Positions 1,069-55,588 of a stretch of 64,000 nucleotides of DNA are shown piece by piece (the first letter of the stretch is position 1; every line of letters begins with the position of its first letter). Origin of the DNA: Candidatus Saccharimonadota bacterium (GTDB lineage Bacteria > Patescibacteriota > Saccharimonadia > Saccharimonadales > JAXHMH01); NCBI GenBank assembly GCA_034521515.1, contig JAXHMH010000002.1, forward strand, positions 88,379 through 152,378. The letters run 5' to 3'. Position numbers and translations under genes: made by a program. The notes beneath the pieces were generated by a model that saw only the letters and a list, made by a program, of their open reading frames with translations, had not been told where the DNA came from and ran no database searches.

Positions 1069-2400
1069 TTATAAGTTTTTGAAGTGGGCGGGAAGGTTGA
1101 TGATTTGGACGCGCTGTTGGTTGGTGGTATCGCGATCGCGGACGGTTACTGTGTTGTCTTCTAGGGTGTCGAAGTCTATAACGACACAGTGCGGGGTGCC
1201 GATTTCGTCCTGGCGGCGGTAGCGTTTACCGATGTTGCCATTATCATCCCACATGACGTTGCCGATTTCTTTTTTGAGCATCTTGTAAACTTCACGGGCT
1301 TTTTCTACCAGCTCCGGCTTGTTTTTGAGTAGTGGCGATACGGCGACTTTTACAGGGGCTAGATGCGCTGGAAGCTTTAGGAATACGCGCTTTTCACCGT
1401 TTACCTCGTCTTCTGTATATGCGCTGACAAGCACGGCCATAATAGCGCGCTCCACACCAAAGCTTGGCTCAATCACATGCGGTACAAACGGTTCACTACC
1501 ATCCTTTGGCCTGTATTCCATGCTTTTGTTACTAACGCGTTCTATATTTTTGAGGTCAAAATCTGTGCGGTACGCTAGCCCAAGTAACTCATCACGCCCA
1601 TGAGGGTAATCAAACTCGTAATCTATAGTGCGCTCAGAATAATGCGCTAGTTCGTCCTTTGGAACATCAAGCTCATGGATCTTGTCTTCCGGCAAACCGA
1701 GGTCACTCAAGAACGCTTTTACATCATTGCGCCACTGCTCGAACGACTCTTCCCAGTTGTCCGGATTAATGAAGTACTCAATCTCCATCTGTTCAAATTC
1801 GCGGCTGCGAAACACAAAATCACGTGGGCTAATCTCGTTACGGAACGCCTTACCCTGCTGCGCGATACCAAACGGCAAATCCGGGTATAGAGTATCCACC
1901 ACATTCTTGAAGTTGGTAAAAATACCTTGCGCCGTTTCAGGTCTAAGGTAGCTAATCGAGTTATCGTCTGCGATAGGGCCAACATTGGTCTTAAACATCA
2001 TATTGAACTGACGAGCCTGTCCGTATGAATCTTTACTTCCACATTTGACGCATGGCTTTGTATAATCGAGATGATCTTCCCGATAACTTTGACCGCACTT
2101 ATTACATACCACCATAGGGTCAGTAAAAGTATCGACGTGACCACTAGCCTGCCAGACCTTCTGGTTCATCAAAATAGCCGCATCTACGCCGAACATGTCA
2201 TCGCGCTCATCAACGAATGTCTTCCACCATAAATCCATAATGTTTTTCTTGAGTGTCACGCCAAGCGGACCGTAATCCCACGTACCAGCCAAACCACCGT
2301 AAATCTCCGAACCCTGGAAAATAAACCCCCGCCGCTTACACAGACTAACGATGTCGTCTAACTTAATTTCTTTACTCATATGCGCCATAGTATACACCAC
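1069..2400 (-). CDS. glyQS: glycine--tRNA ligase (homodimeric class II type)
   Basis: Diagnostic N-terminus RGFIFQGSEIYGGLAGTWDYGPLG plus class II core and anticodon-binding domain. The likely true start is ATG 2379 (MSKEIKL), 7 nt after a TATACT box, which would make it leaderless. Confidence 0.95.
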   Translation of the reverse strand: MVYTMAHMSKEIKLDDIVSLCKRRGFIFQGSEIYGGLAGTWDYGPLGVTLKKNIMDLWWKTFVDERDDMFGVDAAILMNQKVWQASGHVDTFTDPMVVCNKCGQSYREDHLDYTKPCVKCGSKDSYGQARQFNMMFKTNVGPIADDNSISYLRPETAQGIFTNFKNVVDTLYPDLPFGIAQQGKAFRNEISPRDFVFRSREFEQMEIEYFINPDNWEESFEQWRNDVKAFLSDLGLPEDKIHELDVPKDELAHYSERTIDYEFDYPHGRDELLGLAYRTDFDLKNIERVSNKSMEYRPKDGSEPFVPHVIEPSFGVERAIMAVLVSAYTEDEVNGEKRVFLKLPAHLAPVKVAVSPLLKNKPELVEKAREVYKMLKKEIGNVMWDDNGNIGKRYRRQDEIGTPHCVVIDFDTLEDNTVTVRDRDTTNQQRVQIINLPAHFKNL

Positions 2401-2647
2401 CTCTGGGATATGGGCGAGAGATTGACATTAATTATATGTAAGGCGGCAATCCACAAATCAATGTACTTTATACAAAGTAAGCGATAAGTCATAAAACCAA
2501 ACCTCGTCAGCACCCAGATGAAAATCAAAATCATCAACAATATATTGTTCCAACCAAAAACTCATCACGTTAAACCCAACCTTCTCCTCACCCATCCCCC
2601 ACCACCCAATCCCAACACACTACCAATCCCATCACAAACTTGCCTCT

Positions 2648-2677
2648 CAATAAATAATGCTATAGCATACTTTATTG
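2648..2677. promoter_or_regulatory. 30-bp palindrome CAATAAATAATGCTATAGCATACTTTATTG immediately upstream of the 2680 start (candidate operator)
   Basis: Near-perfect dyad centred on TGCTATAGCA. A second copy (27/30 identical) lies at 3260-3289. Confidence 0.6.
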
Positions 2678-2679
2678 AT

Positions 2680-3282
2680 ATGGCACGCAATGACAAAACT
2701 TCGCAGATTATTGACGCCATCCTGAGATATGGCTTGACTCCAACCGTATTGGCTACAGGAATGGTTCTCCCTGGGCTACTTGTTGCACTTGATAAACCAC
2801 TGGATAAAATTTTAAACGGCGTAAATAAGCGTGAAAAAGAAAGAGAGCTCAGACGAGTTCTTAGCTATATGAAGTGGCAAAAACTAATTACGGACAATTA
2901 CGAATATGGTCTAAAGATCACAGACAAAGGCCGAGAGAGACTAGAGGCTATCGACATAAACAAGTTATCAATAAAAGAGCCCCCTAAATGGGACGGATAC
3001 TGGCGAATTATTTTTTACGATATCCCCGAAAAGCACAAAGCAGGACGAAACGCCCTAACCTTTAAGCTGCGCTCTGTCGGTTTTTATCAAATGCAAAAAA
3101 GTGTTTGGATACATCCCTTGCCCTGTAGAGACGTAATCGAAGCGATCTGCACAGTCTACGGCTTAGAAAAATATGTGACGTATACAGAATGTCGCTCTTT
3201 CGATAATGAAGCAGTCCTATTAGAACGTTTTAAGAAAAAATTACCCAAAACTAAGTTCTCAATAAATCGTGCTATAGCATAG
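2680..3282 (+). CDS. winged-helix plus PaaX/Cas2-fold C-terminal domain protein (putative transcriptional regulator)
   Basis: GYWRIIFYDIPEKHKAGRNALTFKLRSVGFYQMQKSVWIHP matches the PaaX/Cas2-like ferredoxin-fold signature, and LSYMKWQKLITDNYEYGLKITDKGRERL looks like a wHTH. The track ORF starts at 2518, but its first 54 aa translate a C-rich repeat, so ATG 2680 (MARNDK) is preferred. Confidence 0.7.
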   Translation: MARNDKTSQIIDAILRYGLTPTVLATGMVLPGLLVALDKPLDKILNGVNKREKERELRRVLSYMKWQKLITDNYEYGLKITDKGRERLEAIDINKLSIKEPPKWDGYWRIIFYDIPEKHKAGRNALTFKLRSVGFYQMQKSVWIHPLPCRDVIEAICTVYGLEKYVTYTECRSFDNEAVLLERFKKKLPKTKFSINRAIA

Positions 3283-10404: not shown

Positions 10405-11444
10405 GTTTCTTGTGGGTGCTTAGCTTGCAAATTTCGTTGATAAAAGAAGTATCCCGGCGGTATCTGAAGCCCCATACTTATTATCCTAAATGTCAGCACA
10501 ACTGGCAGACTCAAGCCAACCGGTACGCCAGCAGCAGCAAACACGCCAGTCATAAGCGCTTCGTAGATACCAATCCCTCCCGGCAACACCGAAATAATAC
10601 CGGCGAAGTTTGCAACAGCATACGCCAATATAATCGCACCTGGATTAACCACCTGGCCAAACGCCAAAAATACACTCCAAATGGCAAACACCTCAGAGAT
10701 ATTGGCTGCCGTTGCATAAACCAAAGGCCAACGCAACAAATTAACGTTCTCGCGCAATAATCGATAGTTGTCATGAAGCTCGGTGAACACCGTTTTAACG
10801 CTGTTAATCTTAATAGTTTCCGGATGTCGCGGCCTAATAACGTGTATTATTCGATTTACGGCAAGTGTCAAAGTTGTGAAGAAGCCATTTATTCGAGCCT
10901 TACTGCTAATAATGTAAACCGCCAGTACCGTACCAACGAACAGTAATGTGGCAAGTGAACCGGCCACAAGCATTACGAAACTATTTACGTCTCCCGCGAG
11001 CGCCAACAAAAACAATCCAACACCCAGTAAGAGCTGGAAAGAAATAAACAGCAACGCAAACCGCATGATTTGCACCAGGGTGGTTTTGCCGGCTTTAATG
11101 CCCTCTTTGCGTAGGCGCAAACCAAGATACGAAAAGCCACTGACGCCGGCGCTCGGGAAAATGTTGTTTACAAAATTCATCTCAAGACTGAGCCGAAACA
11201 TTGGTTTCGTCCGGAAACGATCACCCAAAATACGGAAAACACCTTGATATACTTTGCCCTGACAATAGTGATTTGTGGCTGCAAGCGGCACAATGAGCAA
11301 AATAAACCATAAGTTAACTTCCCGCAGATTACGCAGCGTATCGCCAATCTGCTCGCGCAAGGCGTATGCGGTACCCAATAACGCCAAGAACGTAACGATT
11401 GTAGCGATGGTTTTCCAGTCTTTTCGGCGAATTGTCTCAACCAT
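10401..11444 (-). CDS. polytopic membrane protein, UPF0104/flippase-like (LPG-synthase TM-region) family
   Basis: About 8 predicted TM helices. The track ORF starts at 11627 but would overlap the divergent gene. ATG 11444 (MVETIRRKDW) lies 9 nt after a TATAAT box. Confidence 0.6.
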   Translation of the reverse strand: MVETIRRKDWKTIATIVTFLALLGTAYALREQIGDTLRNLREVNLWFILLIVPLAATNHYCQGKVYQGVFRILGDRFRTKPMFRLSLEMNFVNNIFPSAGVSGFSYLGLRLRKEGIKAGKTTLVQIMRFALLFISFQLLLGVGLFLLALAGDVNSFVMLVAGSLATLLFVGTVLAVYIISSKARINGFFTTLTLAVNRIIHVIRPRHPETIKINSVKTVFTELHDNYRLLRENVNLLRWPLVYATAANISEVFAIWSVFLAFGQVVNPGAIILAYAVANFAGIISVLPGGIGIYEALMTGVFAAAGVPVGLSLPVVLTFRIISMGLQIPPGYFFYQRNLQAKHPQET

Positions 11445-11487: not shown

Positions 11488-12849
11488 ATGGGTAAATCTG
11501 TTTGTATTTTAGGTCGCCAACCGGCATTAGGTTTAGCAGAACTTGAGAGTTTGTATGGCTCCGAAACCGTTTTGCCTATCGGCAATACTGGCGCTCTACT
11601 TAATCTTGAAGCCGACCACATCACCATGAGTCGGCTTGGCGGTAGCCTTAAACTTGGCCGTTACCTTACCGAACTGCCTTATACCGACTGGGGTCGGATT
11701 GAGCAGTTTTTAACCAAACAGTTGCCAGATTATACCGCCGACTTGGAGCCAGGTAAGATACGGCTAGGTCTGAGCCTCTACGGTTTTAATATTCATCCGC
11801 GCAAACTAAACGCCACCGGACTGACGCTAAAAAAAGCAATCCGTCAAACCAGTAAATCTGTCCGCGTCGTCCCCAACAAAACATCTGAGCTTAACGCTGC
11901 GCAGGTTATCCATAATCAACTTACCGGACCGAGCGGGTTTGAAGTATTGCTAATTAAACACCAAGATAAAACAATTGTGGCTCAAACTATCGCTGTACAA
12001 GATATCAATGCCTATGCCGCCCGTGACCAAGCTCGGCCAAAACGTGATGCTCGTGTCGGAATGCTGCCGCCAAAACTTGCACAAATTATTATAAACCTGG
12101 CAACAGGAGAAAAGAGTGTGGAGGCTGGAGAGTGGAAGTCAGGCTCAGCTACCGTGCTTGACCCGTTTTGCGGTACTGGTGTCGTGCTGCAGGAAACGAT
12201 GCTGATGGGCTATAACGCCTACGGCACTGATCTGGAGCCGCGTATGGTAGAGTACACCGCCACAAATCTAGATTGGCTGAATATCACATCTATCAAACAT
12301 CGGGTCAACCAGGGCGATGCCATGAATAAAGAGTGGGTCGAGCCGTTTAGCGTTATTGCGGGCGAGACCTATCTAGGTCGCCCCTTTTCTACTGTCCCGC
12401 GACCTGAAAAATTGCGTGAAGTCATGCAAGACGTAGATACCATTCACCGAGAATTCTTGCAAAACGTGGCGAGGCAGACCAAAAAAGGATTCCGTCTCTG
12501 CATTGCTGTCCCTGCCTGGTATCGCGGTGACACTGGCGGTGCCAGGGCTGTCAGGGCGAGTGCTGTGCACGGCGCAGATGAGCAACGGACTGAGCCGTAT
12601 ATAAAATACGGTGAAGGAGTAGCGCAATCTGCAACAAAGCACAGTGCCGCAAGCAAAGGCGGTGTTACGAGCACTGCTCGGAAGCAGGTCTTTGCGACTG
12701 ACAGATTCTGGCACCTGCCAGTACTTGATAATATCGAGGAATTGGGGTATACTCGGCAGAGTTTTGTTCACGTCTCAAAAGAAGACCTGATTTACCACCG
12801 AGAGGGGCAAATCGTCGGGCGCGAACTCGTAGTATTACAACGTAATTAA
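11488..12849 (+). CDS. SAM-dependent N-methyltransferase (UPF0020/Trm11-like fold) carrying a 63-codon structured insertion
   Basis: Motif I VLDPFCGTG, catalytic-loop region GETYLGRPF, and family-typical C-terminus LIYHREGQIVGRELVVLQR. Codons translating 12533-12721 are low-complexity (TGGARAVRASAVHGADEQ...). Confidence 0.75.
   Translation: MGKSVCILGRQPALGLAELESLYGSETVLPIGNTGALLNLEADHITMSRLGGSLKLGRYLTELPYTDWGRIEQFLTKQLPDYTADLEPGKIRLGLSLYGFNIHPRKLNATGLTLKKAIRQTSKSVRVVPNKTSELNAAQVIHNQLTGPSGFEVLLIKHQDKTIVAQTIAVQDINAYAARDQARPKRDARVGMLPPKLAQIIINLATGEKSVEAGEWKSGSATVLDPFCGTGVVLQETMLMGYNAYGTDLEPRMVEYTATNLDWLNITSIKHRVNQGDAMNKEWVEPFSVIAGETYLGRPFSTVPRPEKLREVMQDVDTIHREFLQNVARQTKKGFRLCIAVPAWYRGDTGGARAVRASAVHGADEQRTEPYIKYGEGVAQSATKHSAASKGGVTSTARKQVFATDRFWHLPVLDNIEELGYTRQSFVHVSKEDLIYHREGQIVGRELVVLQRN
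12533..12721 (+). other. structured element A: 189-nt (63-codon) in-frame insertion closed by a 20-bp terminal helix
   Basis: 12533-12545 pairs with 12708-12721 (13 bp, 1 bulge) and 12548-12554 pairs with 12698-12704 (7 bp). The core AGCAACGGACTGAGCCGTAT-ATAAA-ATACGGTGAAGGAGTAGCG is shared with element B. Confidence 0.6.
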
Positions 12850-12854
12850 CAACC

Positions 12855-13026
12855 CAGTCACTTAAGCCTCTTACTTGGATGCAGTACAAGGAAGTAACAA
12901 GTAGCGGATCGAGCCGTATGCACATACGGTGAGGAAGCAACGGAGTTACTGACGCAGTAATGCGCCAAGAAGTCAGCGGAGTTGCATGCTCCGCATGCAA
13001 GCAGGCTGACTGGTAAGAGGTTTAAG
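12855..13026 (+). promoter_or_regulatory. structured element B: rpmA 5' leader whose closing helix sequesters the Shine-Dalgarno
   Basis: 12861-12874 CTTAAGCCTCTTAC pairs with 13013-13026 GTAAGAGGTTTAAG (14 bp, one G.U that is valid only on the + strand). The 3' strand contains the SD AAGAGG and abuts ATG 13027. Internal hairpins lie at 12914-12929, 12946-12960 and 12982-13000. Confidence 0.55.
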
Positions 13027-13299
13027 ATGAGTAAAGTTAAAGCTGGTGGCTCAAGCAAGAATGTCCATGACAGTCCCGGACAAAGACTGGGCGTCAAACT
13101 ATTTGGCGGCCAAGAAGTTAAAACTGGTCAAGTAATCGTCCGTCAAACCGGCTCAACCAAACGCGCCGGTAAAGGCACATTTATTTCACGAAATTATACA
13201 ATCCACGCTGCAAAAGATGGGGTCGTCAAATTTACCAAGCGCCGTGTCCGCCGTTTTACTGGCAAAAGCGCACCGCGCACCGAAGTAACCGTCGAATAA
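13027..13299 (+). CDS. rpmA: 50S ribosomal protein L27
   Basis: MSKVKAGGSSKNVHDSPGQRLGVKLFGGQ... is canonical L27. The track ORF start at 12982 translates the leader, and ATG 13027 has the SD AAGAGG. Confidence 0.92.
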   Translation: MSKVKAGGSSKNVHDSPGQRLGVKLFGGQEVKTGQVIVRQTGSTKRAGKGTFISRNYTIHAAKDGVVKFTKRRVRRFTGKSAPRTEVTVE

Positions 13300-16047: not shown

Positions 16048-17643
16048 TTATTTTAAAGCTTTTATAAATCCGCTAAACATTGGGTGGGCGCGATTAGGAC
16101 GTGACTTAAACTCCGGGTGAAACTGGCTCGCCAAAAAGAATGGGTGATCGAGTCCTTCAATTATCTCTACCAAGTGACCGTCCGGACTGGTACCACTCGC
16201 TCTAATCCCCCAAGCTTGGTATTGATCTCGAAAATCGTTATTACACTCATAACGGTGACGGTGACGTTCTACAATGTTTGATGTTTTGTATACCTGTTCA
16301 GCTAAACTCTTTTTCACCAACTTACATGGATAATTACCCAGACGCATTGTGCCACCGGTATTTTCCTTGCCTTTTTGATCTGCCATAGTGTTAATCACCA
16401 AACACTTGCTGGTGTTGTCGAGTTCTTCAGAAGTCGCATCTTTGATTCCACCGTTGCGTGCAGCAGCCACTACTGCCATCTGTAGACCAAGGCATAGACC
16501 GAGATATGGAAGCTTGTTGGCGAGGGCATATCGAGCGGCGTTAATCTTACCTTCTAGCGCACGTGTACCAAACCCGCCAGGCACGACAACCCCGTCAATA
16601 TCCTGGAACACCGGGCTGAGATCTACGTCGCCTTCTAGCTTTTCAGCATTGATCCAGTGCAGATTTAGGTTTGTGTCATTCGCCCATGCAGCACTTTTGA
16701 GTGCCTCAAAAACCGACATATAGGTATCTTGGTTATCCATATATTTGGCGACAACTCCAATATCTACCGTGTTATTCTGCTTTGCCTTAGCACGATCCAC
16801 CATTTTGCGCCAATCTTTAAGGTGTGGTCTACTTACTCTTAAGTTTAGTCTCTTGGCTATAGTCTCGGTTATATTAGTGTCCTCTAGTGTAAGCGGCACT
16901 TCGTAAATACTCGAGGCATTAGGCAGCAGTGCTATGGCTTCTGGCGTTACACCGCTAAATAAGCTGAGTTTATTGATAACCGATTTAGGCGCCTTATCTT
17001 CACTTCGTGCCACCAATACATCCGGAACAATTCCGAGTCCTCTAAGGTCGCGAACAGCGTTCTGAGCCGGCTTTGTCTTCAGCTCACCGCTTGCACCAAG
17101 ATAAGGCAAATATACAACGTGCACGAACAAACTGTTTTCCCGACCAACCTCAAACGAGAGTTCACGGATGGCCTCAAGAAAACTCAATCCCTCATAATCA
17201 CCTACTGTACCGCCTATTTCTACAATATGGACATCAAACCCTTTGGCAGCCGCCTTGATTTGTTTCTGGATTGCCTTCGTAACATGCGGAATAAATTGCA
17301 CGGTTTTACCAAGATACTTACCACGGCGCTCGTCTTCAATGACTTGACGCAATACTCTCCCGCTCATCAAGCTACTGCTTTGCGTCAACTCTTGATCTAA
17401 AAACCTTTCATAATGCCCTAGATCCAAATCGGTTTCAGCACCATCCTTAGTAACAAAACACTCGCCGTGTTCTGCCGGATTTAGCGTACCAGCATCGGTG
17501 TTTAAATAAGGGTCGCACTTCTGAACGTTTACACTCAAGTTACGAGCTTTTAAGAGGTTGCCAATGGAAGCGGCCGTAATACCCTTTCCTAATCCAGAAA
17601 GCACACCACCAGTTACAAAAATGTATTTAGTCGGTTTTGCCAC
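16048..17643 (-). CDS. pyrG: CTP synthase
   Basis: KYIFVTGGVLSGLGKGI N-terminus and glutaminase domain GLCLGLQ. GTG start with AAGGGG upstream. Confidence 0.95.
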   Translation of the reverse strand: MAKPTKYIFVTGGVLSGLGKGITAASIGNLLKARNLSVNVQKCDPYLNTDAGTLNPAEHGECFVTKDGAETDLDLGHYERFLDQELTQSSSLMSGRVLRQVIEDERRGKYLGKTVQFIPHVTKAIQKQIKAAAKGFDVHIVEIGGTVGDYEGLSFLEAIRELSFEVGRENSLFVHVVYLPYLGASGELKTKPAQNAVRDLRGLGIVPDVLVARSEDKAPKSVINKLSLFSGVTPEAIALLPNASSIYEVPLTLEDTNITETIAKRLNLRVSRPHLKDWRKMVDRAKAKQNNTVDIGVVAKYMDNQDTYMSVFEALKSAAWANDTNLNLHWINAEKLEGDVDLSPVFQDIDGVVVPGGFGTRALEGKINAARYALANKLPYLGLCLGLQMAVVAAARNGGIKDATSEELDNTSKCLVINTMADQKGKENTGGTMRLGNYPCKLVKKSLAEQVYKTSNIVERHRHRYECNNDFRDQYQAWGIRASGTSPDGHLVEIIEGLDHPFFLASQFHPEFKSRPNRAHPMFSGFIKALK

Positions 17644-17795
17644 CGCTTTTTTACCCCTTATTTATGCCCTTAACTCTAGCATAGCCCCGCCCGAACCTAA
17701 AGTGTTTTATCTTATTAAAACTTCTTGCCTACCAATCCCAATTATCTAAAACGTGCTGTCATAGACTACTAACCCGCCTACTAGACCATATTTTC

Positions 17796-18410
17796 ACTAT
17801 TTCCAAGACCAGGTCCTGGAAATAGTCTACTGCTGCGAAGGCCGGGAGAATCAAATACCCTGTTACTTTTTGTCCGCTAAAAAGTAACCAAAAACCTCGT
17901 CACGGCTGAAAAAACAAGAGTACGAAGCAGCACTGGTTGGCCGCGCCGGCAGAACGACAAGCGGCTCCGCCAGTTTTTCTAGTTACTTTGGCGGAGCTTG
18001 ACTACCGGCTTGACTCGTCCAACCAGCACTCCTTCGCTTCTGTTTTTCAGATGTGACCCTCATTAGTTGTGTTCTTTTTAAAGAACACATAATTAACCGG
18101 AATGGCGAAGCCATTCCGGGGTCTGGCTCTGCAAAGTCCTGACTAGATGTTGTGTAAAAGAGGCGCCCTTGGGCGCGAGAGCTGTCTGACCCCTCACCAC
18201 TCTCGAAAGAGATGGTGAGGGGGAGTTCCGACAGCATTCCCTTTTTGCCTGCCACCAGGCAAAGCCTGCTGCGCCGCAAAAAGAGACGAACCAGCGAGCC
18301 TGTTTTAGACAACAGATAGATCAAGAGTTTGCAGTCGCCAGTCGGTTCTTTGCATACTTTCTTGCGACCAAGAAAGTATGGCGCATACGGGTCGCCTCGG
18401 CGACCGGCGC
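17796..18410. ncRNA. candidate large (~615 nt) highly structured RNA of unknown class
   Basis: At least 11 local hairpins and 2 long-range helices (details in findings). This is the largest non-coding gap in the window, and the only ORF in it (17983..18423) is compositional junk. The strand is unresolved. Confidence 0.5.
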
Positions 18411-18513
18411 AACAGTTATCCAAACAAAATTCGTATTACAATACATATCTATTGAGAATCATGTTATATCAAATATAAAAATGTGTTTTAGTTGAATTAC
18501 GTAATTGTTGGAA

Positions 18514-19719
18514 TTACTGTAACTGCTGCTTAGCGGCGTCGAGTTGTGGATCACGATCAGCCTCAAAATCGTCTTGAGTTAATTCAACCGTTTGATCGGG
18601 CTCTATGCCCTCCTTATCTATATTTCTGCCATCCGGCGTAAACCAACGTGCGATCGTAACTTTTAGTTGAGCACCTCCGCTTAATCGCACTAGACGCTGT
18701 ACGCTACCCTTACCATAGGTTTGTTCGCCGATAATGGTCGCCAACTCGTAGTCCTGTAAAGCACCGGCCACAATTTCGCTCGCACTCGCACTACCCTCGT
18801 TCAGCAATACAACCGTTGGCACGTCACGCAACAAAGCTGAGCCCTCGGAGCGGAATGTCTTGACTACGACATCCTCTCGTTTTTCTTCTAGAACCGTCTC
18901 GCCGTTCTCTACCCAAAGACCTGCTAAACTGACCGAGGCGTCCAGTAATCCTCCAGGGTTGTTGCGTAGATCAAGTATCACACCCTCAACGCCGACACTA
19001 CGGAACTTTTCGGCAGCCTCTTGTACCAACCTTTCGGTATCATTGCCAAACCGACTCACTTTCAAATAGCCTATACCGTCAGTTACTTCGGATTCAACAC
19101 TCGGAATAACTATTTTGTCACGGGTTATTGTCAACTCCAGCTGTTTTGATTGCTCACGGATGATTGTTAGCGTTACGTCGGTACCTTCTGGCCCACGGAT
19201 TTTACTTACTGCCTCGCTTACAGAAATATCGTAAGCGTTTTCGCCGTCTATCTCGGCTACAATATCTTGAGCGCGAAGGCCGGCTGCTTCTGCAGGAAAA
19301 CCCGAAATGGGTGCCACGATAGTTATATAGTTATCTTCACTCTTGCTAAGCTCAGCACCAATACCGGTAAATGTCCCGGAAAGCCCTTCTTCAAAATCAG
19401 CCGACTCTTCAGCATCCAAATATTCCGTGTAAGGATCACCCGTCGCTCCAGCCAAGCCTTCTTTGAGTCCGTCCATGAGTTCATCAAGTTCAAGCTGTCC
19501 GTCGTAATTATTACGTAGTGATGAGTACAAATCTTGTACCTCATTCATGTCAAGCGAATCTGGTAAATCTTGGTTGGTACTTATGGGATCAACTGATGAT
19601 AGATTGAATTGCAGTGTTCCGTTTCCAACCAAAAACCCCAAAGAAAAAATAACTACAACTACAAAAATTGATTTTGCCCAGCTCGGCACTGTAATAGAAT
19701 TGCGCGATCCACGCCCCAT
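18514..19719 (-). CDS. S41 family C-terminal processing peptidase with PDZ domain
   Basis: N-terminal TM anchor, PDZ (GFPAEAAGLRAQDIVAEIDG), and catalytic region LLNEGSASASEIVAGALQD. Confidence 0.85.
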   Translation of the reverse strand: MGRGSRNSITVPSWAKSIFVVVVIFSLGFLVGNGTLQFNLSSVDPISTNQDLPDSLDMNEVQDLYSSLRNNYDGQLELDELMDGLKEGLAGATGDPYTEYLDAEESADFEEGLSGTFTGIGAELSKSEDNYITIVAPISGFPAEAAGLRAQDIVAEIDGENAYDISVSEAVSKIRGPEGTDVTLTIIREQSKQLELTITRDKIVIPSVESEVTDGIGYLKVSRFGNDTERLVQEAAEKFRSVGVEGVILDLRNNPGGLLDASVSLAGLWVENGETVLEEKREDVVVKTFRSEGSALLRDVPTVVLLNEGSASASEIVAGALQDYELATIIGEQTYGKGSVQRLVRLSGGAQLKVTIARWFTPDGRNIDKEGIEPDQTVELTQDDFEADRDPQLDAAKQQLQ

Positions 19720-54830: not shown

Positions 54831-55588
54831 GCTACTGCCCTTTTTATTATTTCTTTTGTAAGCTGCTTGTAAGCACGAGCCCCGCGTGACCATTTATCAT
54901 GATCGGCAATTGTTTTGCCATAACTTGGTGCTTCAGCTAAACGGACATTTCTCGGAACCACTGTACTTAAAACTTTATCTCCAAAATGCTTTTTTAGTTC
55001 AGCTTCAACTTGACCGGACAAACTCGTACGTGCATCATACATTGTGAGCACCACACCAAGTATTGAAAGATTATGATTTAGCCCATGCCTTACTTGGTCT
55101 ATAACGCTAAGCAACTGGCTTAAACCTTCCAACGCATAATACTCGGCTTGAACCGGAATCAATACACTATCGGCAGCAGTTAACGCATTGACCGTAAGTA
55201 ACCCAAGCGATGGCGGACAATCTATCAATATATAATCATGGCTACATTTTTCGATTGCTCGTTTTAATAATGTCTCGCGGCTCAGCGTACCGACCATATC
55301 AACTTCTGCTGCAGCTAAGTTCGCGTTACTCGGCAGTACAAACAACCCATCGGTTTCAGTCTCAAGTATGGTTGACGCGGCATCCGCATTATCAAACAAT
55401 ACATCATATAAGGTTGAGCCGAGCGAATGTTTATCCAAGCCAAGTCCACTTGTAGCATTACCTTGAGGATCAGCGTCAACCACCAAAACTGTCTTGCCAG
55501 CTTTAGCTAGATAAGCCGCGACATTAATAGCCGTCGTAGTCTTGCCGACTCCACCCTTCTGGTTAATAACCGCAATAGTATGACTCAT
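54827..55588 (-). CDS. parA: chromosome partitioning ATPase ParA/Soj
   Basis: Deviant Walker A NQKGGVGKTTT. Confidence 0.92.
   Translation of the reverse strand: MSHTIAVINQKGGVGKTTTAINVAAYLAKAGKTVLVVDADPQGNATSGLGLDKHSLGSTLYDVLFDNADAASTILETETDGLFVLPSNANLAAAEVDMVGTLSRETLLKRAIEKCSHDYILIDCPPSLGLLTVNALTAADSVLIPVQAEYYALEGLSQLLSVIDQVRHGLNHNLSILGVVLTMYDARTSLSGQVEAELKKHFGDKVLSTVVPRNVRLAEAPSYGKTIADHDKWSRGARAYKQLTKEIIKRAVA

Follow-up and report, generated by a model that had tools for sequence, protein, structure and literature searches.

The structured leader of rpmA in a Saccharibacteria genome is probably one copy of a dispersed palindrome-like repeat

Results

Two copies of a folded element at the methyltransferase-rpmA gene pair

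The window analysed here, that is, the whole 64-kb stretch of Saccharibacteria DNA, carries a gene for a SAM-dependent methyltransferase directly upstream of rpmA (Table 1). The spacer between the two genes is filled by a structured element (B) consisting of a basal helix, P1, and two arms, and a homologous element (A) lies within the methyltransferase ORF about 320 nt upstream of B. Both fold as Y-shaped three-way junctions, and in each case none of 200 shuffled sequences was equally stable. An earlier sequence-only reading had described A and B as copies of one structured element, and the comparison bears this out: the two align with 73% mean column identity and share a core, GAGCCGTAT-loop-ATACGGTGA, which occurs exactly twice in the window against an expectation of zero. 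Furthermore, at 26 base pairs both partners differ between A and B and yet still pair, while a single pair is lost; the exchange of AGYARCGG box variants between the copies, which had also been remarked upon, thus amounts to compensatory base-pair change. The positions given for CAGTCA, TGACTG and the two strands of P1 were likewise all confirmed in the window sequence. The closing helices do differ in sequence between the copies, as had been claimed, although that of A is formed by 12532-12555 and 12697-12722, and not by the local CTGGC/GCCAG palindrome.

These are the only good copies in the window, both being located at the methyltransferase-rpmA pair. A weak match to the R2 covariance model at 55350-55422 on the forward strand (17.4 bits, E 0.025) may represent a decayed third copy. 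When the region was searched for transcription signals, no terminator and a single promoter-like site were found, a count not above chance. This sigma-70-like site (TTGATA-17-TATACT, 12725-12753 on the forward strand, 10/12 matches) lies directly 3′ of element A and about 100 nt 5′ of B and, judging by its sequence, could give rpmA a separate transcript.

Table 1. Features of the methyltransferase-rpmA locus, with positions in the window (MFE, minimum free energy fold; R1 and R2, covariance models).
Feature	Position	Strand	Evidence and remarks
Trm11/UPF0020-like SAM-dependent methyltransferase gene	11488..12849	+	Pfam matches, homologues, synteny in 82 loci; hosts element A
Element A, in frame in the methyltransferase ORF	12532..12722	+	MFE -104.3 kcal/mol, z -8.4; R1 match 12542-12711, 166 bits; residues ~349-404
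CAGTCA	12855..12860	+	Could pair with TGACTG at 13007-13012; equivalent motifs in L002, L030
Element B, full fold (P1, arm 1 and hairpin 2)	12858..13030	+	MFE -75.5 kcal/mol, z -7.2; R1 match 12861-13026, 157 bits; fills the methyltransferase-rpmA spacer
P1 5′ strand (anti-SD), CTTAAGCCTCTTAC	12861..12874	+	Inverted repeat I2, 14 nt, 93% complementary; homologous helix covaries in L002, L030
Arm 1 of B, conserved family core	12875..12968	+	Rod; tandem G.A and A.A internal loops; apical stem GCCGUAU/AUACGGU; R2 match 93.8 bits
Hairpin 2 of B	12971..13011	+	Symmetric GGNG/GCAG internal loop; inverted repeat I1; covarying helices 7 and 8, 9 and 10
P1 3′ strand, GTAAGAGGTTTAAG	13013..13026	+	Holds rpmA SD AAGAGG (13015-13020); abuts ATG at 13027
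rpmA (ribosomal protein bL27)	13027..13299	+	Pfam PF01016 Ribosomal_L27, E 9e-23

Most rpmA loci lack the element, and where its fold is clear it pairs with the Shine-Dalgarno sequence

Gene order was compared across 82 loci, comprising 80 species-representative Saccharibacteria loci and 2 metagenomic loci. The methyltransferase gene lies directly 5′ of rpmA in essentially all of them, and in about 65 the spacer measures 0-16 nt and has no leader, which implies translational coupling between the two genes. Spacers of 135-192 nt are those that carry the element, which the covariance models place between the two genes at 9 of the 82 loci. We note that in Saccharibacteria rpmA is not adjacent to rplU and has the methyltransferase gene as its universal upstream partner. 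Beyond the nine spacers, the same models detected copies upstream of the methyltransferase gene (L050), inside it at a second variable site (L054), upstream of xseA (L015) and, in L030, also on the opposite strand downstream of pyrG. Overall, some 12 of roughly 85 rpmA loci carry the element, and about 85% of the clade's rpmA loci are without it. In L001 and in the contig of P0002 the in-ORF copy is the only one, and rpmA starts 2 nt past the methyltransferase stop. Finally, about 17 copies fall within roughly 1.5 kb of the gene pair in the 82 genomes, a clustering that hints at a preference for this locus, which would be unexpected of a randomly inserting selfish element.

At rpmA itself, P1 was found to hold the Shine-Dalgarno (SD) sequence, in line with the sequence-only reading. 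Minimum free energy folds place the SD in the 3′ strand of P1 in the window and in L002, L030, L008, L047, L057, L059, L133 and L176, whereas those of L004 and L072 do not (L125 was judged on its terminal sequences alone). P1 differs in sequence among these rpmA-proximal copies, showing that SD pairing is kept by covariation; a comparison of relatives for such covariation upstream of rpmA had been proposed as a check. Some rpmA leaders have no hairpin 2 and form a plain rod closed by the anti-SD/SD helix. Between the methyltransferase stop codon and the 5′ strand of P1, which follows it, there are 7-36 nt. The alternative pairing that had been suggested between CAGTCA and TGACTG would be incompatible with P1 and with the base of hairpin 2 alike; as CAGYCA/UGRCUG it can be drawn in all three leaders of the three-way-junction type, a comparison of three sequences only.

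Among copies lying upstream of genes other than rpmA, the SD falls outside P1 in most, inside P1 in L087, and in L127 it is the start codon that lies within P1. The SD of rpmA is base-paired in the 3′ strand of P1 because B abuts the start codon, and for a copy so placed the pairing is almost a geometric necessity.

Copies are dispersed across spacers and within conserved protein genes

Covariance models were built from 5 and then from 15 copies. An exact-pattern scan of metagenome contigs returned at least 120 loci and, among the matches listed, the models bore out 94 and 21. The scan and the models thereby provide more than 110 further copies, most of them far from rpmA and the methyltransferase gene, which contradicts the idea that the element is confined to this gene pair.

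Pfam assignments of the surrounding ORFs identify two kinds of context. In the first, the element is fused in frame into a protein gene whose ORF remains intact: it is antisense in isoleucyl-tRNA synthetase (IleS) on about a dozen contigs, one IleS having two copies, and in DNA polymerase I (PolA), and it is sense in uracil-DNA glycosylase (UDG) and glutamate dehydrogenase (GDH). Both the methyltransferase and IleS offer two such sites. The presence of a near-copy in the upstream ORF of the window, which the sequence-only reading had found puzzling, is explained by this habit of in-frame insertion. In the second context the element is intergenic, its neighbours including genes for a Clp ATPase (clpB-like), GltX, L10 (rplJ), DnaA, S2 (rpsB) and COX1 (cytochrome oxidase subunit I), and the flanking genes have no common functional theme. 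Gene 3′ ends face the element 68 times and 5′ ends 33 times, and of 42 downstream ORFs 10 run in the same direction as the element.

The element can also occupy one protein site in either orientation, since at the methyltransferase position that holds the sense copy A in the window L324 carries an antisense copy (96.5 bits) and L325 a decayed antisense one (14.8 bits). Copies of opposite orientation are found close together in L185, at 1280-1373 (-) and 1508-1605 (+), and in L324, at 1345-1514 (+) and 2513-2684 (-), where one overlaps the methyltransferase start and the other lies antisense inside the ORF; orientation might be flipped in place through inversion between the element's arms. A few bases 3′ of P1, a recurrent motif resembling GCGG(T)TTTTGATA is found in L183, L126/L160, L127 (1694-1862) and L165 (4891-5058), and may mark a subfamily whose unit is longer, or else a tail resembling a terminator. 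As a separate observation, the IleS encoded by L149 (924-4475, +) has an extra NUDIX domain (PF00293, E 1.9e-8) at residues ~250-311 that is absent from IleS of L086 and L132. A phage origin was considered and rejected: 120 viral contigs fit a relaxed version of the pattern, but none of the 80 viral matches tested was borne out by the covariance model.

The fold is maintained by compensatory change

An alignment of 17 copies is paired in 92.3% of its cells, a figure that falls to 29-39% once the partners are slid, and 49 of the 57 pairs have changed in a compensatory way. With 84 distinct copies, in an alignment that was fitted to the model and whose apical stem was partly fixed by the search pattern, the corresponding values are 92.5%, 31-39% and 50 of 57. 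At one conserved position G.U is the commonest state (70/84 copies), indicating that the fold is strand-specific. The sequence of P1 differs in nearly every copy, and its pairing is kept and often perfect. Hairpin 2, for its part, is missing from the shorter, hairpin-type members of the family.

Copies that occupy the same site in different species have also changed in a compensatory manner, with 15-21 double changes against 1-3 lost pairs for the A-type copies within ORFs, and 11-13 against 1-3 for the B-type copies at rpmA. Unpaired positions are conserved at least as well as stems. In IleS, the element is 0.91 identical between clades as compared with 0.66-0.73 for the flanking coding sequence; within one clade the values are 0.99 and 0.84-0.88, whereas within the other the element, at 0.91, is slightly below its flanks at 0.94-0.95. 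The compensatory evolution at shared sites, together with the conserved internal loops, suggests a function beyond selfish persistence.

One pair of copies bears on how the element multiplies. L114 and L112 are 97% identical over the whole element and have unrelated distal flanks, which shows that a duplication took place recently. Their common unit of ~270 nt (L114 1026-1294; L112, minus strand, ~11092-11261) appears closer to a segmental duplication than to a precise transposition; it comprises the element, small upstream hairpins (GTCCCGCATAACGGGAC; GGCACTCTTGAGCGCGTGTCAAAGTGCT) and a downstream partial inverted copy, in a palindrome mosaic reminiscent of BIMEs. We had considered that P1 might be made from the target flank on insertion, and rejected this since L114 and L112 carry P1 intact: P1 is part of the unit and diverges later. 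An alignment by the model of AAGCAGG with the V-K-A-G-G codons of L008 and L004 had suggested that hairpin 2 might derive from a duplicated 5′ coding end of rpmA; this too was discarded, since dozens of copies without any relation to rpmA also have hairpin 2.

Among the copies examined, no conserved terminal inverted repeat (TIR) or terminal motif was evident, and inspection of 87 copies, among which there was no close filled/empty pair to define the ends, revealed no evident target-site duplication (TSD). Since neither a transposase or other partner gene nor a partner IS element was identified, the mobility of the element is described here as putative.

In-frame copies are read through as a peptide insert

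The methyltransferase of the window matches a protein from a Candidatus Saccharibacteria MAG without a single difference. Homologues of the methyltransferase are mostly 385-400 aa long. A minority of 440-470 aa have an insert between AVPAW and GFxHLP, and in several of these the insert contains the conserved peptide EQRTEPYMKYGEGVA, which is the translated RNA core. The element is therefore present or absent at orthologous sites, the insert being missing from most methyltransferase homologues just as most rpmA spacers are empty. Reading from the sequence, the conserved GA motifs leave just one sense frame free of TGA and TAG, which accounts for the recurrent RTEPYxxYGEG peptide (LVHRxSNTAHSxTP in the antisense case).

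The disorder of the insert was examined for the methyltransferase only. An AlphaFold2 (AF2) model of the window's protein has a mean pLDDT of 80.5 and a pTM of 0.80, with values below 50 confined to residues 349-404 and two short loops, and pLDDT over the insert itself is ~26-30. This fits a tolerated, predicted surface or disordered loop of the methyltransferase. In addition, proteins P0121-P0138, annotated in metagenome-assembled genomes (MAGs) as 'hypothetical proteins' of 44-72 aa, are the open sense frame of intergenic copies. A profile search with the in-frame peptide returned only such spurious ORFs of 44-72 aa and no host proteins.

Discussion

A dispersed repeat as the probable source of the rpmA leader

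We consider it likely that element B is a copy of a dispersed, structured, palindrome-like Saccharibacteria repeat of 120-170 nt and not a regulator specific to L27, a reading that takes in the coupling at rpmA proposed below. Members of the family are built around the conserved rod of arm 1, to which some add a second hairpin to give the three-way junction, with a closing helix that is always paired. Copies are found in intergenic spacers, mostly facing the 3′ ends of genes, and also in frame within protein genes in either orientation, and have presumably spread by selfish duplication, with any benefit to the host being conjectural. Under this model, B would have landed in, or been duplicated into, the normally 0-16-nt methyltransferase-rpmA junction in the lineage of the window, A being a paralogous copy in a surface loop of the methyltransferase.

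The occlusion of the SD at rpmA is, in this model, probably a side-effect of insertion that is relieved by upstream ribosomes. Given the short distance from the methyltransferase stop to P1 and the ancestral coupled arrangement, we infer that coupling survives across the insertion: ribosomes terminating at the methyltransferase stop would melt P1 and keep rpmA translated, and this melting would preserve the ancestral methyltransferase-rpmA translational coupling.

Alternative explanations

A broader possibility, which we hold to be less likely, is that the element is a functional, strand-specific RNA or single-stranded DNA (ssDNA) module kept by compensatory evolution, for example as a protein platform for RNA turnover, processing or control of translation, or else a new kind of mobile element free of TIRs and TSDs that passes through a structured intermediate. 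If this were true, the rpmA copy would be a genuine translational switch between P1 and the upstream CAGYCA pairing.

More specifically, the loops of arm 1 might bind a trans-acting protein or ligand that controls the translation, stability or processing of many transcripts, in which case the copy at rpmA would be a true operator under regulation, in which the expression platform sequesters the SD and CAGYCA/UGRCUG is the alternative pairing. We regard this as unlikely, even though it would sit well with the 11-21 compensatory changes by which same-site copies keep their fold across species, with unpaired positions as conserved as stems or more so, and with IleS copies that are better conserved than their flanking coding sequence between clades. 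The placement of the SD within P1 at rpmA and L087, and of the start codon in L127, is also consistent with such a module, as is the alternative helix available to all three leaders of the three-way-junction type. The genomic context argues otherwise: downstream ORFs are co-oriented with the element in only 10 of 42 cases, genes turn their 3′ ends towards it about twice as often (68 versus 33) as their 5′ ends, the neighbouring genes lack a functional theme, and the SD is outside P1 in most upstream copies other than those at rpmA. Moreover, the copies in IleS, PolA and one methyltransferase are antisense, so the mRNA of the host gene cannot fold in this way.

Occurrence in both orientations relative to transcription would be in keeping with an element that acts as ssDNA, its fold serving, for example, as a signal for replication or recombination or as the target on which a Y1/HUH-type enzyme works, and RNA being irrelevant. 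A strand-specific fold with conserved G.T(U) pairs points in the same direction, as does the GC skew: of the 74 loci where it is non-zero, 58 have the element's sense strand on the C-rich strand, a bias that is nevertheless confounded by gene orientation and by non-independent same-site copies. An unsystematic look at the surroundings brought no HUH or RAYT-like gene to notice. Conserved G.A and A.A loops in tandem, such as those of the element, are a feature more of RNA motifs; we think it improbable that the element acts at the level of DNA alone.

The sequence-only reading had likened the leader to a ribosomal-protein autoregulatory element or a riboswitch-like toggle, and part of this stands, in that a folded, SD-hiding element is found before rpmA. 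In an L27-specific (or methyltransferase-specific) leader, excess L27 would bind the element and stabilise the SD-sequestering helix, and any effect of A would be exerted by way of translational coupling. Sequestration of the SD in front of rpmA is conserved, copies appear enriched around the gene pair, and the loci with an in-ORF copy only and rpmA 2 nt past the methyltransferase stop (L001 and the P0002 contig) could be accommodated in this way, but with most of the clade's rpmA loci devoid of the element, over 100 copies elsewhere beside unrelated genes, no match to a ribosomal leader in Rfam and no similarity to E. coli 16S, 23S or 5S rRNA in a covariance-model search, we find specific autoregulation by L27 hardly credible.

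The underlying searches were as follows. Rfam gave no match across the whole window at gathering thresholds and, for the element region with E up to 10, nothing relevant beyond a chance mir-344 match, so that neither an L21/L27 leader nor any other relevant family was recovered; the lack of an Rfam match, the functionally unrelated neighbours and the orientation of downstream ORFs likewise speak against a riboswitch. The R2 covariance model, run with filters off against the E. coli rrnH operon (16S, 23S and 5S), gave matches that all had E >3, the rRNA in this comparison being that of E. coli and not of Saccharibacteria. A self-splicing intron or ribozyme was rejected as well, given the absence of an Rfam match and the in-ORF copies, which are free of stops in frame and in some cases antisense to the host gene. 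The CUGA/GA motifs similarly do not denote a hammerhead or a k-turn, since CUGA is variable (UCGA, AUGA, GCGA, GUGA) and no ribozyme model matched.

Comparison with known repeats and leaders

By analogy, the closest known kinds of element appear to be the Rickettsia palindromic elements and the bacterial MITEs. A search of the literature for L27/rpmA leaders, and for repeats of the MITE or RPE kind, brought up nothing specific to Saccharibacteria or Patescibacteria. Patescibacteria have tiny genomes and are thought to be streamlined.

The Rickettsia palindromic elements (RPE) were described by Ogata et al. 2000, and a review that covers them (PMC2229807) lists a 12-bp TIR for RPE in its table; related protein-coding palindromic repeats are found in Wolbachia. 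The likeness to the Saccharibacteria element lies in a length of 100-170 bp, a long stem-loop, dispersed intergenic copies, in-frame fusion into conserved housekeeping genes that are left intact, and a host with a reduced genome and a host-dependent lifestyle, with no transposase known; the Saccharibacteria insert, too, lies in a predicted disordered surface loop. There is, however, no sequence relationship, and the Saccharibacteria element belongs to another phylum (Patescibacteria), has a conserved internal core, non-canonical loops, often a three-way junction and hypervariable termini, and occurs in both orientations at one protein site.

The MITEs with which it was compared (Correia/NEMIS, ERIC, RUP and YPAL; PMC2229807) are similar in being small, non-autonomous dispersed repeats that form stable hairpins in transcripts, can influence how adjacent genes are expressed and in some cases have open frames fused to ORFs. 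In contrast, what defines MITEs is the presence of conserved TIRs and, as a rule, a duplicated target site (TA or other), and neither was found here; the Saccharibacteria element is conserved internally, the opposite of a TIR-defined repeat, and no partner IS element was identified. REP/BIME sequences resemble it as dispersed palindromes that favour gene 3′ ends or the space between convergent genes, and one locus is a mosaic with small hairpins, but REPs are 20-40 nt long, strictly extragenic and RAYT-associated, whereas the present element is 120-170 nt long and also intragenic.

Ribosomal-protein autoregulatory leaders include the L20 and L10 leaders and the L21_leader of Rfam, which lies upstream of rplU-rpmA in Bacillota. 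The rpmA copy is like these translational operators in being a structured 5′ region with a basal helix that occludes the SD, and differs from them in that the element is not operon-specific, is missing at the majority of the clade's rpmA genes, matches no Rfam leader and shows no detected mimicry of E. coli rRNA.

Although the genomes of this lineage are presumed to be streamlined, a structured repeat has colonised their spacers and has entered essential genes in frame (IleS, DNA polymerase I and the rpmA-linked methyltransferase). It explains recurrent disordered inserts of 40-60 residues in its host proteins as well as spurious small 'hypothetical proteins' in MAG annotations, and it counsels caution, as such copies are not to be taken for gene-specific riboswitches or ribosomal leaders. 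If the compensatory evolution at shared sites reflects function, the element would be a new class of structured nucleic acid in a major uncultivated lineage, and its in-ORF copies a rare case of selection for an RNA fold layered over protein coding.

A second structured region in the window

Between the ORF at 18514-19719 (-) and pyrG at 16048-17643 (-), the minus strand of the window has ~870 nt (17644-18513) that are dense with perfect hairpins and contain no convincing ORF. The region had no match in Rfam with E up to 1, and its fold has an energy of -328 kcal/mol (z -9.9 against 20 shuffles). Among its hairpins, one (18241-18283) is a weak match to hairpin 2 of the element (E 0.003), and the whole may be either a large structured ncRNA or a patchwork of small palindromes.
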